From an uncultured Holophagales bacterium (GTDB taxonomy: Bacteria; Acidobacteriota; Thermoanaerobaculia; Multivoradales; UBA5704), in the NCBI GenBank assembly GCA_963842525.1, contig CAWJGT010000009.1, forward strand, positions 1,536,001 to 1,600,000: 64,000 nucleotides of DNA. Reading direction: 5' to 3'. A program made the position numbers and the translations under genes. Position 1 is the first letter of the stretch; the number at the start of each line of letters is the position of its first letter. The notes below the pieces were generated by a model that had not been told where the DNA came from, did not search any database, and saw only the letters and a list, made by a program, of their open reading frames with translations. Below, in pieces: positions 27,401 through 42,400 of the stretch.

Positions 27401-30400
27401 GCTCTACCGCAGCGGCGACTTGGCGCGGTACCTGGCGAATGGCGAGTTGGAGTTCCTAGGGCGGATCGATCACCAGATCAAGATCCACGGCTTCCGCGTC
27501 GAGCCGGGGGAAATCGAGGCCGCCCTGTGCCGCCATCCCGCGGTCGCGGAGGCGGTGGTCACCGGCTGGGAGGAGCGGCCCGGAGAGCTGCGGCTGGCGG
27601 CCTATTTCACGGGCGCGCAACGGCCTTCCGAGGAGGAACTGCGGGGGTATCTCGCGGAGCGGCTCCCAGCGTCGATGGTGCCGTCGTCTTTCGTCTTCCT
27701 GGACACGCTGCCGCGCACCGCGCACGGCAAGGTGGACCGCCGCTCCCTGCCGCGACCCGAGGCGTCGCGGGAAGAGCCGGCGCAGGTTCCTCGCACCCCG
27801 GTCGAGGAGGTGCTGGCGGCGGTGTGGGGTGACGTGCTGGGCCTGGCGCGGGTGGGTGTGGAAGACGATTTCTTTGCGCTGGGAGGTCATTCGCTCCTCG
27901 CCGTCCGGGTGATCTCGCGCATCCGCGCCGTGCTCGGGGTGGAGCTGCCGCTGCGCGCGCTGTTCGAGTCGCCGACGCTGGAAGGGGTGGCGGCGGCCGT
28001 CGAGGAGCTGCGGCGCGGCGGGGAGCGGCCGGTGTTGCCGCCGATCGTCCGGGTGCCGCGCGAGGGCCCGCTGCCGTTGTCGTTCGCCCAGCAGCGGCTG
28101 TGGTTCCTCGACCAGTTGGAGCCGGGCAGCGCGGCATACAACATCCCGGCGGGCCTGCGGCTGCGCGGCCGGCTGGAGGTGCCGGTGCTGGCGGCGGCAT
28201 TGCGGGAGATCGCGTGCCGGCACGAGGTCTTGCGCACCACCTTCGTGGCCGTCGATGGAGATCCGGTCCAGGCCATCGGCGCCGAGCCGCCGGCGTCATT
28301 GCCGGTGATCGACCTGCGCGCGCTGCCGGAGTCGGCCCGTGCGGAGGAGGTCCGGCACCTGGCACGGCAGGAGGCGCTGGCGCCGTTTGACCTCTCCCGG
28401 GGCCCGCTGCTGCGCAGCTCGTTGCTGGCGCTCGCGGCCGAGGAGCACGTGGCTCTGGTGACGATGCACCACATCGCGAGCGACGGCTGGTCGACGGGCG
28501 TGCTGGTACGCGAGATCAAGGCGCTGTACGAAGCGTTCCTGGAGGGCCGCCCGTCGCCTCTGCCGGAGCTGGCGGTCCAGTACGCCGATTTCGCCGTCTG
28601 GCAGCGGGGCTGGCTGACCGGGGAGGGCCTGGACTCCCAACTCGGCTTCTGGCGCGAGCATCTGGCCGGCGCCCCGCCGGTGCTGGATCTGCCGGCCGAC
28701 CGGCCGCGCCCGGCGGTGTTCAGCGGTCGCGGCGGGCTGCGCGAGGGGCGGCAGCCGGCGGAAATCGCGGCCGCCCTGGCGGCGTGGGTGCGGCGCGCCC
28801 ACGCCACGCCGTTCATGGCCCTGCTGGCGGTCTGGAAGGTGCTGCTCCACCGCCTGACGGGCGCCGTCGACCTCCTGGTCGGCACGCCGATCGCCAACCG
28901 CGGTCGCATCGAGCTGGAGGGCCTGATCGGCTTCTTCGTCAACACCCTGGCGCTGCGCACGCGCGTCGCGCCGGAGCTCTCCCTGCGGGAGGTGACGGCA
29001 CGGGTCCGCGAGGGAGCGCTGGCCGCCTACTCCCACCAGGAGATGCCGTTCGAGCGGCTGGTCGAGGAGTTGGCTCCGGAGCGCAGCCTCGCCCGATCAC
29101 CGCTGTTCCAGGTGATGTTCGTGCTGCACAACAACCCCCGAGAGGAGCTGGCGCTGCCGGGGCTCGCCCTGGACCTCCTGGCGTCGCGGGCAGCGACCTC
29201 CAAATTCGACCTCACGCTGTTCCTGGCGGAGCGCGGCGACGGTCTCGTGGATCAGTTGGAGTACGCCTCCGACCTCTTCGACACCGCGACGATCGATCGC
29301 TGGCTGGCCTACTTCGGAGTCCTGTTGGAGGCGGGCCTGGCGGCCCCGGACCTGCCGCTCGGCGACCTGCCGCTGCTCTCCGCGGCCGAGCGCCACCAGC
29401 TCCGCTGCGAGTGGAACGCCGCGGCGGCGGTGGGGCCGCTCACCCCGGTCCATCTCCAGGTGGCGGAGCAGGCGTCCCGGGCGCCGGAACGGACCGCCCT
29501 GATCGACGGCGCGCGGCATCTCTCCTACGCCGAGGTGGACCGCTTGGCGGAGGCGCTCGCCTCTCGCCTGGGCGCCCGAGGTGTAGCCACCGACGCACCG
29601 GTGGGTATCTTCCTAGAGCGGGGCTGGGAGATGGCGGTGAGCCTGCTCGCGGTGCTCAAGGCGGGCGGCGGCTGCCTGCCGCTCGATCCCACCTATCCGC
29701 CCGACCGCTTGACCTTCATGCTGGCGGACTCCGGAGCGCTGGTGCTGATCACCCAAGATCGCCTGATGTCCGCACTGCCGGCCTTCGGCGGGCAGGTGGT
29801 GCGGGTCGAGGACACCAAAGAGGAGAGCGCCGCCTGGCTGGATGCGCGGGCCGACGCCGAGTCGCTGGCCTATGTGGTCTACACGTCGGGCTCCACGGGC
29901 CGGCCCAAGGGGGTCGGAGTGCCGCACCGTGTGCTGTCGAACCTGATCGCCTGGCAGCTCGCGGATGCCCGGGTGCCGCAAGCCCGGACGCTGCAGTTCG
30001 CCTCGCCGAGCTTCGACATCTCCTTCCATGAGGTCTTCGCCACCCTGGCGGCGGGGGGTACGCTGGTTGTCGCGACCGCCGAGCACCGGCGGGATCCCAA
30101 CGTGCTGCTGGCCTGGCTGCGGGAAGCGGCGGTGGAGCGCCTGTTCCTGCCCTATGTCGCCCTGCAGCAACTCGCCGAAGCCTGGAGCCGGGCTGGCGGC
30201 GAGGTGCCGCTCCTCCTGCGCGAGGTGATGACGGCCGGGGAGCAGCTCCGCGTCACCCCGGAGATCGCCGCCTTCTTCCGGTCCTTGCCGGGCGCGGTGC
30301 TGTACAACCACTACGGGCCCTCCGAAACCCACGTGGTGACCTCGTGGCGGCTTTCCGGAGATCCCGGCACATGGCCGGTCCTGCCGCTGATCGGCCGGCC

Positions 30401-39400: not shown

Positions 39401-42400
39401 GCAGGCCGACGCCGAGTCGTTGGCCTATGTGGTCTACACCTCGGGCTCCACGGGCCGGCCCAAGGGGGTCGAAGTGCCGCACCGTGTGCTGTCGAACCTG
39501 ATCGCCTGGCAGCTCGCGGATGCCCGGGTGCCGCAGGCCCGGACGCTGCAGTTCGCCTCGCCGAGCTTCGACGCCTCCCTCCACGAGGTCTTCGCCACCC
39601 TGGCGGCGGGCGGCACGCTGGTGGTCGCCACCTCCGAGCACCGGCGGGATCCCGACGCGCTGCTGGCCTGGCTGCGGGAAGCGGCGGTGGAGCGCCTGTT
39701 TCTGCCCTATGTCGCCCTGCAGCAGCTCGCCGAAGCCTGGAGCCGGGCGGGCGGTGGGGAGCCGCTCCATCTGCGCGAGGTGATGACGGCCGGCGAGCAG
39801 CTCCGGGTCACCCCGGAGATCACCGCCTTTTTCCGCTCCTTGCCGGGCGCGGTGCTGTACAACGACTACGGGCCTTCCGAAACCCACGTCGTGACCTCGT
39901 GGGCGCTGGCTGGAGACCCTGGCGCGTGGCCGGCCCTGCCGCCGATCGGCCGGCCGCTGGCGAGCACCTCGGTCCACGTGCTTGACCGCCAGTCGCAACC
40001 CGTGCCGCTCGGCGTGCCCGGCGAGCTGTACCTGGGCGGGATCATGGTGGCGCGCGGCTATCTGGGCCGGCCGGACCTCACCGCCGAGCGCTTCCTGCCG
40101 GACCCGTGGAGCGAGCAGCCGGGAGGCCGCCTGTACAAGACCGGCGACCTGGCGCGCTGGCGCCCCGCCGGAGCGGTCGACTTCCTAGGCCGCGTCGACT
40201 TCCAGGTGAAGATCCGCGGCTTCCGGGTGGAGCCGGCGGAGATCGAGGCGGTGCTCCTGGCGCACCCGGCGGTGAGCGAGGCCGCCGTGGTGGTCCGCGG
40301 CGCCGGCGCGCGGCGCCGGCTGGTGGCGTTCGTGCAGCCCGCCGGGGCAGTCGAGGCCGGGGACGGTCTGCACGAGGCGCTGTGGGCCTACCTCCGGGAG
40401 CGCCTGCCGGACTACATGGTGCCGGCGGCGATCGTGGCCCTGGAGGCCTTCCCGCTGACCCCCAGCGGCAAGGTGGACCGCCGGTCGCTGCCGGAGATCG
40501 AGGCGATGGAGGCCGGTGTGCCGGCCGGCCCGCGCACGCCGGTCGAGGAGATGGTGGCGGGGATCTGGTCGGAGCTCCTGAGCGTGGGGGAGGTGGGGCC
40601 GGAGCAGGACTTCTTCGCTCTCGGCGGGCATTCGCTGCTAGCCACGCGGGTGGTGGCCCGGGTGCGCTCCACCTTCGGGGTGGAGCTGCCGGTGCGGGCG
40701 ATCTTCGAAAGCCCGACCCTGGCCGGCTTCGCCGCCGTGGTGGCCGCGGGCCTGCGCTCGGGCACGGGGCTGGTGGCGCCGCCGACGATCGAGCGGGCCG
40801 ACCGGCGGCAGCCGTTGCCGCTCTCCTTTGCCCAGCAGCGCCTCTGGTTCCTCGCCCAGTTGGAGCCGGGCAGCGCGGCGTACAACCTGCCGGCGGGCCT
40901 GCGGCTGACCGGCCGCCTGGTGGTGCCGGCCTTAGCGGCGGCCCTGGCCGAGATCGCGCGCCGGCACGAGGTGCTGCGCACCACCATCGCGACAGTCGGC
41001 GGCGAGGCGGTGCAGGTGGTCGCGCCGGAGCCACCGGGGAGCCTGCCCTGCGTCGACCTGCGGGGCCTGCCGGCGGCGGCCCGGGAGGAGGAGGTCCGGC
41101 GCCTGGCGCGGCAGGAAGCCCTGGCGCCGTTCGACCTCTCCCGGGGCCCGCTGCTGCGCAACTCGCTGCTGTCGCTAGCGGCCGACGAGCACGTCGTGCT
41201 CGTGACGATGCACCACATCGCGAGCGACGGATGGTCGATGGGCGTGCTGACCCGCGAGCTGAAGGCGCTGTACGAGGCCTTCGTGGGCGGCCAGCCGTCG
41301 CCGTTGCCCGAGCTGTCCGTGCAGTATGCGGACTTCGCCGTCTGGCAGCGCGGCTGGCTCTCGGGCACGGTGCTCGCGGCGGAGCTGGAACACTGGCGCC
41401 GGCAACTCGCAGGGGCTCCGGCGGCCACCGAGCTGCCGCTCGACCGGCCGCGGCCGGCGGTGCGGAGCTGGCGCGGCGGCCTGAGGACATTGGCGCTGCC
41501 GGCCGCGACCTCGGCCGCGCTGGTCTCGCTCGCGCGCTCGTCCGGGGCGACACTGTTCATGACGCTGCTCGCGGCCTGGCAGAGCCTGCTCCACCGCTAC
41601 ACCGGGCAGCTCGACCTCACCGCGGGCACGCCGATCGCGGGCCGTAACCACCTGCAGCTGGAAGGGCTGATCGGCTGTTTCGTCAACACCCTCGTACTGC
41701 GCACAGACCTCGGCGGCGACCCCGGTTTCCTGGAGCTGGTGGGCCGGTTGCGCCAGGTCACCCTGGACGCTTACGCGCACCAGGACCTGCCGTTCGAGAA
41801 GCTGGTGGAGGAGCTGCAGCCGGACCGGAACCTCAGCCACTCGGCACTGTTCCAGGTGATGTTCATCCTGCAGAACACGCCGCAGGAGCGCCTGGAGCTG
41901 CCGGGGCTGGAGATGGCGGCGCTCGGCGGCCAGGGCCTCGAGGCCAAGTTCGACCTCACCGTCGCGGTGACCGAGGAAGGGGGGCGGCTGCGCGCGGCTC
42001 TCGGCTACGCGGCCGAGCTGTTCGACGGCGCCACGGCCGAGCGGCTGCTCGGCCACTTCGCGGAGCTGCTCGGCGCCGCCGTGCTGGAGCCGTCGGCGCG
42101 GCTCTCGGAGCTGCCGCTGCTGCCGGCGGAGCAAAGGTGGCAGCTCCTGGGCGAGTGGAACGACCGGCCGGGCGAGGCGCCGCCGCGGGCCTGCCTGCAC
42201 GAGCTGTTTGCCACCCAGGCGCGGCGGACCCCGAACGCGGTGGCCCTGGTCGACGGCACCCGGCGGGTGAGCTTCGGCGAGCTCGACGAGTGGTCGGACG
42301 CCCTGGCCTCGGCGCTACTGGAGCGCGGGCTCGGCGACGGCGCCCAGGTGGGTTTCTTCGTGGAGCGCGGCGCCGCCATGGTGGCCGCCCTGCTGGGGGT

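Follow-up and report, generated by a model that had tools for sequence, protein, structure and literature searches.

The 64,000-nucleotide stretch analyzed here (hereafter, the window) comes from an uncultured Holophagales bacterium (assembly GCA_963842525.1, contig CAWJGT010000009.1), whose genome amounts to 9.9 Mb in 34 contigs and is 96% complete; all coordinates are positions within the window unless another label is given, with G000 denoting the host genome, where the window corresponds to G000:C9:1536001-1600000. A biosynthetic cluster of ~110 kb encloses the subject of this work, a pair of duplicated adenylation (A) domains of the proline type. Both reside in a single giant gene for a hybrid nonribosomal peptide synthetase (NRPS)-polyketide synthase (PKS) of ~10,327 amino acids (15417..46400, + strand; open frame 14028-46400), delineated by Pfam domains and specificity codes, with the likely start, ATG 15417, overlapping the upstream stop. 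The domain order is C-A(Gly-type)-T-KS-AT-T, followed by seven condensation-adenylation-thiolation (C-A-T) modules (Ala-type, Asx-type, Pro-type 1, Asx-type, X, Pro-type 2 and Ala-type) and then C-TauD; the substrate labels of the non-Pro modules (Ala, Gly, Ser, Asx and Glu), here and below, are those that we presume from their codes.

The first Pro-type module (28014..31196, +) has intact HHIASDG, A3, A7, A8 and GGHSL motifs and the A10 lysine, and its A domain (29445..30936, +) carries the code DIHFMAHVVK, with Ile236 at 30018, Phe238 at 30024, His239 at 30027, Met299 at 30228 and His322 at 30309. The second module (37566..40754, +), likewise with intact catalytic motifs, contains an A domain (38997..40495, +) with the code DAHFMADVVK (Ala236 at 39573, Leu238 at 39579, His239 at 39582, Met299 at 39783 and Asp322 at 39864). 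The motifs singled out by an earlier, sequence-only reading of the window all translate where it had placed them, FDISFHE at 30012-30032 and NHYGPSETHVV from 30306 in copy 1, FDASLHE at 39567-39587 and NDYGPSETHVV from 39861 in copy 2, and the two codes, along with DVQFAAHVAK of the Pro domain in the downstream gene 51995, were reproduced by alignment. Each copy has the complete set of features of an NRPS A domain in an intact C-A-T module (A3, Asp235 in A4, A5, A7, A8, A10 Lys, HHxxxDG and GGxS, with the Pfam domains Condensation, AMP-binding and PP-binding). Each also belongs to the proline clade, having TycB1 and GrsB1 as its top Protein Data Bank (PDB) hits and nesting with DVQF-type domains in a quick tree that was built from 126 of 224 Pro-clade domains (a limited number per code) and 3 outgroups. 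Neither copy matches the canonical L-Pro code, DVQ(F/Y)xA(H/Q)VVK, as given by the reference codes of PMC9113097 and the GrsB1 alignment.

The copies are genuine duplicates; ‘near-identical', as they were first described, here means A domains that are ~88% identical (60 of 498 residues differ), and the modules show 86.8% identity at the protein level (138 of 1061 aligned residues differ) and 89.4% at the DNA level. For the module pair, dS is 0.23, dN is 0.07 and dN/dS is 0.32; the ratio is 0.30 within the A domain and 0.22 within the A3-A5 pocket subdomain. The latter differs at 11 of 158 residues (93.5% DNA identity), and three of these eleven differences sit at positions 236 (ATC in copy 1, GCC in copy 2), 322 (CAC and GAC) and 238 (TTC and CTC); the changes at 236 and 322 had been recognized before, whereas the pocket-adjacent F238L had been omitted. 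Met299 is encoded by ATG in both copies, and His239 by CAT in one and CAC in the other. Neither copy is enriched in rare residues (of the 56 A-domain differences that were scored, 15 have the rarer residue in copy 1 and 11 in copy 2, p=0.56) and the profile scores are nearly equal (1471 for copy 1 and 1468 for copy 2), both measured against 140 full Pro-clade modules (222 were sought), so that neither copy appears to be decaying. The copies are under purifying selection and, judging by their sequences, both are functional.

The possibility that copy 2, perhaps together with module X immediately before it, is weakly active or skipped, the pocket changes being an early sign of decay, has to be considered given that module X lacks Asp235 and that copy 2 departs from the family at a few conserved columns, such as F238L and an Arg-to-Trp replacement in the small subdomain (copy-1 coordinate 30825). 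With all catalytic motifs intact, dN/dS of 0.3 and no rare-residue excess in copy 2, this explanation is highly improbable.

We assign a similarly small chance to the idea that the variant codons, or the duplication itself, arose as errors when this metagenome-assembled genome was assembled or polished. Apparent frameshifts split several NRPS/PKS genes in the downstream, low-GC half of the cluster (60921-62681, at 60921/62269, and offsets 73704/78652 and 82534/84926 beyond the window) and are either sequencing errors or real breaks. No read run covers the region: the three runs retrieved have a share of 0.05 and, at 85% likeness, gave short pieces of NRPS genes from other organisms, which speak neither for nor against the codons. 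Moreover, a perfect repeat of 684 bp overlaps the C domain of copy 1: the tract at 27932..28615 (+), which consists of a T domain end, the T-C linker and the first part of this C domain, is identical to 34310..34993 (+), the corresponding part of module X, in surroundings that are otherwise 80–90% alike, and reflects either recent gene conversion between modules or assembly collapse. Errors, however, do not produce 138 differences among 1061 residues with more synonymous than non-synonymous changes per site, the Ile/Ala difference at 236 takes two substitutions in one codon, and the His239 codons differ (CAT and CAC); the single base at 39864, taken by itself, rests on one assembly.

Self-comparison of the gene reveals two long similar blocks, 24065-29732 with 30449-36110 (81%) and 27236-32606 with 36794-42164 (85%), the latter spanning the entire Pro-type module plus the following C domain. 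The two Pro-type copies are sisters on the quick tree (support 98), and the intragenic duplication claimed by the sequence-only reading is thus real. The pocket core is more similar between the copies than its flanks, which points to point mutation as the source of the code changes; replacement of the A-core by recombination was ruled out on the same grounds (93.5% DNA identity in A3-A5). The Pro domain of gene 51995, with 54% core identity to copy 1 and a place on a separate branch, was ruled out as the parent. No close orthologous cluster was found, the best A-domain identity outside the pair being at most 60% among 40 relatives, at most 66% in protein searches and 60% among plasmids. Duplication followed by point mutation in the pocket is a route already described, and in this respect the event is ordinary in kind. 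Module duplication, point mutation and A-core recombination are reported to diversify NRPS of the microcystin and Ahp-cyclodepsipeptide pathways, with pocket point mutation said to yield conservative shifts or relaxed specificity (PMC8097286), and Leu- and Phe-selecting A-cores with 87% identity are reported from a kahalalide symbiont (PMC11428043). The present pair shares the common route of duplication and pocket mutation with these cases; it involves point mutation rather than a core swap and is known from genes alone.

Tests for an enrichment of changes in the pocket give divided results. Relative to the divergence of the A domain itself, the excess is not significant: 2 of the 8 variable code positions differ compared with 0.96 expected across the whole domain (P=0.25), and the same 2 changes compare with 0.56 expected within A3-A5 (P=0.098). 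Set against real paralogs, in a comparison made post hoc, the pair is unusual. From 581 A domains with a readable core, 30 paralog pairs at 85–99% identity were sampled, using each domain once and skipping identical pairs; in 22 of these pairs the code is unchanged, 5 of the 8 with a change show two or more, and the overall count of 15 code changes against 22.9 expected indicates that code positions are normally spared in close paralogs. Among the 20 host-genome pairs, only the Pro-type pair has at least two code changes; the remaining 19 pairs have 2 code changes in 280 differences, both conservative (Fisher p=0.007), and the comparison with all 29 other sampled pairs gives p=0.05, both values overstating the significance because the pair was picked for differing. 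As a local control, the adjacent Asx-type modules (24813..28013 and 31197..34391, both +), with the code DATKIGQVAK in each, are 84.6% identical and have 61 A-domain differences, none of which falls in the code. Natural pairs of this kind are not unique to the window: L032 (6/9737, 3246/6423) and L048 also contain close paralogs whose codes differ at two or three positions, for example, DVCITTHVVK and DAHITTHVVK at 95.5% identity.

The rarity of the pocket residues was gauged in 427 distinct Pro-clade domains, collected from the host genome and its relatives and by means of two scans with DNA patterns and three protein searches (338 from the latter); in this sample, the genome scan selected for His239 and kin are not independent. 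Neither exact code recurs among the other 425 sampled domains, and the combination of His239, Met299 and Asp322 is present only in copy 2. His239 and Met299, being common to both copies, date from before the duplication, and with them most of the departure from the canonical Pro code. His239 is found in 74 of the 427 domains (16 of 338 when only protein-search hits are counted), and the quick tree suggests that it originated repeatedly; its usual partner is Ala236 (65 of 74 overall and 14 of the 16 protein-search domains), with Ile236 accompanying it once among the 74 and present in 3 of the 427. The nearest clade (24 rows, support 92) has 22 other members, with Val236 in 18 and Met236 in 4. 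Both ATC and GCC are one base away from the Val codon GTC, which allows Val to Ile along with Val to Ala, or else Ala to Ile, and makes Ile to Ala the least likely order. The proposed enlargement of the pocket by I236A is therefore doubtful in its direction, and Ile236 appears, from these comparisons, more likely to be the derived oddity.

Position 322 is occupied by His in 237 of the 427 domains and by Gln in a further 172, while 10 have Asp and 4 have Glu. With His or Gln in 409 domains, it is not a fixed cation, so that the ‘charge reversal' proposed for H322D was an overstatement. The rarity of Asp322 in the absence of a basic residue at 299 does hold among the sampled domains: all seven domains with Arg/Lys299 have Asp322, and seven of the nine Asp322 domains other than copy 2 carry Arg/Lys299, counts that are enriched because two of the seven were retrieved with a pattern requiring Asp322. 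The two Asp322 domains without basic 299 are paralogs in P0244 that are otherwise canonical (DVQFIADVVK and DVQFVADAAK). This pairing suggests contact between positions 299 and 322 and a counter-ion for Asp322 in most domains; copy 2 has none unless His239 serves in this capacity. Copy 2 lies outside the Arg/Lys299-Asp322 subfamily, having Met299 and being separate from those domains on the tree.

The best solved matches of the pocket region are GrsB1 (PDB 8p5o; E 2.5e-16) and TycB1 (PDB 9bfd; E 1.4e-20), both of which read NHYGPSETHVV. The copies share with them Asp235, the TAGEQL motif, Ala301 and (N)xYGPSETHVV with Val330 and Val331, and differ from them in having His in place of Gln239, Met299, Ile or Ala in place of Val236 and, in copy 2, Asp in place of His322. 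Asp659 of GrsB1 is reported to bind the amine (bioRxiv 10.1101/2023.04.03.535426); from the offsets to this residue and the alignment, we mapped V660, Q663 and H755 of GrsB1 to 236, 239 and 322. The changed positions are thus known sites for tuning between Pro and its analogs, in line with the sequence-only reading. According to the same report, laboratory evolution of GrsB1 toward piperazate (Piz) changed H755, V660 and Q663 (variants AYA, SQSF and MWG), which overlap 236, 239 and 322, with shrinkage of His322 in the first step away from Pro, and the triple mutant H755A/V763Y/V764A gained 80-fold in Piz specificity, with the Pro KM rising from 0.14 to 10 mM and Pro still preferred.

Two known analog-loading types were rejected as identities of the copies. 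Natural Piz codes are given as DVFS(V/I)xxYAK (PMC3943440), with Tyr330/Ala331 and an aromatic residue at 239, unlike Val330/Val331 and His239 that the copies retain; a piperazate-activating domain was ruled out by Val330/Val331 and by the lack of a KtzT-family gene in the host genome. AerG of aeruginosin, which loads the bicyclic proline analog Choi with the reported code DVHICA(F/Y)LVK (PMC3765200, Table 2), has His239 as the copies do, a precedent for this residue in a loader of a proline analog, but differs from them in Ile278, Cys299 and the aromatic 322; beyond D235, A301, V331 and K517, only His239 is common to this code and both copies, and a Choi-type identity was rejected. AerDEF-like genes are not among the cluster genes scanned, although no profile search was aimed at aerDEF.

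The reading that we favor, with a probability of about 0.45, is that proline-type rings remain the substrates of both copies but that their preferences have shifted, copy 1 being tighter and copy 2 roomier and more polar. With regard to the order of events, we infer that a Pro-clade A domain with His239 and Met299 already in place was duplicated within a single NRPS gene as part of a block that also took in its C and T partners and the following C domain, and that both copies stayed functional while point mutation tuned their pockets in opposite directions. In copy 1, the bulkier Ile236 would make the pocket tighter, whereas in copy 2, small Ala236, Leu238 and the shorter, acidic Asp322, probably hydrogen-bonded to His239, would leave more room. 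The most likely substrates of either copy are cyclic secondary amino acids like proline; Pro or a small ring might be favored by copy 1, and copy 2 might be broader and also take rings that are larger or bear polar substituents, pipecolate or a hydroxyproline for instance.

Several observations weigh against such a shift. Apart from the non-significant enrichment of code positions against the domain's own divergence and the post hoc nature of the paralog-pair test, the uncompensated Asp322 in the otherwise canonical P0244 domains implies that Asp322 may be harmless to Pro loading, the authors of the GrsB1 study stress the context-dependence of the code (bioRxiv 10.1101/2023.04.03.535426), and a single-sequence AlphaFold prediction of copy 2 (mean pLDDT 34) yielded no usable model. 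The main evidence against an exotic substrate is that no supply gene for a proline analog was found in the cluster, which also tells against the basic or substituted substrate envisaged by the sequence-only reading. The KtzT family (PF04299) has no match in the host genome (96% complete), in a search that matched 4 of 14 controls; the three cyclodeaminase-family genes of the genome are all outside the cluster; and, with regard to the azetidine-carboxylate pathway (AzeJ/VioH with a B12 radical SAM enzyme), a B12 radical SAM gene is present, but the stand-alone methyltransferase of the cluster (L004:9468-10568), the one gene to which the comparison with AzeJ and VioH was applied, has neither among its 39 PDB hits and resembles O-methyltransferases. 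Weak matches to PF13434 are partial and lie outside the cluster.

Besides its NRPS and PKS genes, the cluster has a fatty-acyl-ligase-type start and encodes three TauD dioxygenases, a B12 radical SAM enzyme, a CmlA-type hydroxylase, an amidotransferase of the asparagine-synthase family, a carbamoyltransferase, a methyltransferase and a transporter. Modification by the oxygenases and the radical SAM enzyme could take place on a residue already loaded and would then demand no change in the A domain. One alternative ranks close behind the favored reading, a serious contender even if the less probable of the two: near-neutral drift, with both copies loading the same residue, L-Pro or one analog inherited from the His239/Met299 ancestor. 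Under this explanation, the changes are tolerated because Pro-clade pockets place little constraint on 236 and 322 and a single substrate is available, and hydroxylation or methylation by TauD, CmlA-type or radical SAM enzymes follows loading. Drift is compatible with the within-pair probabilities for the two code changes and with the three TauD enzymes and CmlA-type hydroxylase, as well as with the alternation of His and Gln at 322, both of which are reported in Pro-assigned domains (DVQYVAHVVK and DVQFVAQVVK; PMC9113097), and of Val and Ala at 236 within the single locus L054 (DVHFQAHVVK and DAHFQAHVVK). Furthermore, no analog supply gene was found, and Pro domains are described as promiscuous and supply-driven, accepting azetidine carboxylate when it is supplied (PMC11794875). 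What drift accounts for less readily is the scarcity of Asp322 (mostly with Arg/Lys299) and of Ile236 among the 427 domains, the placement of three of the 11 A3-A5 differences at 236, 238 and 322, and the mere two code changes, both conservative, in the other 19 host-genome pairs.

A more radical proposal, which we consider unlikely, is that copy 2 represents a natural switch, by two to three mutations, to a cationic or otherwise new proline analog, gripped by Asp322 without the Arg/Lys299 counter-ion. Its more specific version, the strong form of the sequence-only reading and even less likely, has copy 2 loading a cationic residue, aminoproline or a small diamino acid, whose extra amine is bound by the free Asp322 carboxylate and sits where other Asp322 domains put Arg/Lys299. 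The 299/322 pairing, implying that the two positions are neighbors and that Asp322 wants a cation, is in line with this version, as are the code DAHFKADVVK (P0273), which is the copy 2 code except for Lys in place of Met299, and the presence in the cluster of the amidotransferase and carbamoyltransferase. Yet His239 can act as the partner of Asp322, Phe278 and Met299 would keep the pocket hydrophobic and shallow to judge by the code, neither an aminotransferase nor a ring-forming enzyme was found among the cluster genes scanned, and the pairing counts are inflated by the two metagenome Asp322 domains retrieved with the Asp322-requiring pattern.

Elsewhere in the giant gene, module X (34392..37565, +; code NAWFLGHVVK, FNAATWE at 36426), directly upstream of copy 2, has Asn in place of the amine-binding Asp235, with the remaining core motifs present; to go by its sequence, it may accept a hydroxy acid, be poorly loaded or be bypassed. 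Asn235 codes also occur elsewhere in the host genome (NILQLGL, NILQLGV, NAWQFGL and NLFNAAL). The duplicated Asx-type domains (26600-27750 and 33000-34130) have Gln322, and the Asp-type and Asn-type domains of the cluster carry His and Glu at this position. Near 46500, at the end of the giant gene, the GC content drops from ~0.73 to 0.61, and two blocks with different origins may have fused to form the cluster; past the drop, the assembly line seems continuous, from C-TauD through the radical SAM gene to a degenerate C with an Asp-type A-T. The B12-dependent radical SAM methyltransferase (46964..48622, +) matches the PhpK family model (637 bits, cut-off 600), a P-methyltransferase family, with no phosphonate gene among the cluster genes scanned, and is a possible tailoring enzyme. 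Gene 51995 (51995..59848, +), in the low-GC half, encodes, according to Pfam and the codes, an NRPS with the order C-A(Gly-type)-T-C-A(Pro)-T-C, the Pro domain of which has FDVSAQE at 57179, NHYGPTESHVA at 57470 and a canonical-type code. At the start of the window, an A domain (29-5893) is split by an inserted luciferase-like monooxygenase and an FkbM methyltransferase. A stand-alone gene for a lantibiotic-dehydratase N-terminal (PEARL-like) protein (L001:9542-12115), ~10.5–7.9 kb before the window, lies directly upstream of the first NRPS, and integrase and transposase genes are located on the cluster flanks.

Beyond this cluster, the residues that are unusual in the two copies recur in uncharacterized subfamilies with His239 or Arg299/Asp322 (DAHFQAHVVK, DAHITTHV(V/A)K, DVHFIAHVVK, DVQFRADVVK and DAHFKADVVK), recorded in Acidobacteriota, Gemmatimonadota, Myxococcota, Pseudomonadota, Cyanobacteria and others. 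Among the His239 codes, DAHFQAHVVK, DAHITTHV(V/A)K, DAHI(M/L/I/V)THVVK and DVHFIAHVVK recur across several phyla, and DVHFIAHVVK closes similar NRPS genes in two genomes of the same genus (G001 and G002). The DAHI(T/M/L/I/V)THV(V/A)K domains form one clade (24 rows, support 95) from Acidobacteriota, Myxococcota, Pseudomonadota and Verrucomicrobiota, and some of the widespread His239 codes, DAHFQAHVVK and DAHI(T/M/L/I/V)THV(V/A)K (L021-L077), were found in cultured strains, whose products might allow their assignment. The subtype with Arg/Lys299 and Asp322 (e.g. DVQFRADVVK) is spread over several branches (G000 C34:333662, L045, L046, L078, L079, P0256 and P0273). Five Pro-clade A domains of the host genome with Cys235 (CVQHIAQV(I/V)K) make up one clade (G000 C19:224553, 231125 and 241023; C34:258947; C14:100493). 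Exact or partial codes were found in no paper among the open-licence PubMed Central and bioRxiv main texts, code tables often being placed in supplements.

More broadly, Pro-clade codes with His239 or with Arg299/Asp322 turn up repeatedly in many uncultured phyla, and none of them was found in the main texts searched. Predictors will label such codes Pro by similarity; testing the pair would check this label and help the prediction of peptide structures. The main value of the pair is as an experimental handle on the undescribed His239 and Asp322 subfamilies: the pocket subdomains differ at 11 of 158 residues, and since three of these differences adjoin or contact the substrate, four mutants would suffice to read 236 and 322 in the His239 background. 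If the switch in copy 2 is real, the pair would offer a clean, 93%-identical entry to the substrates of several widespread undescribed His239 and Asp322 subfamilies from soil bacteria not yet cultured, and an unrecognized supply pathway would be implied. The pair is a natural, although not unique, example of how NRPS may alter what they load.

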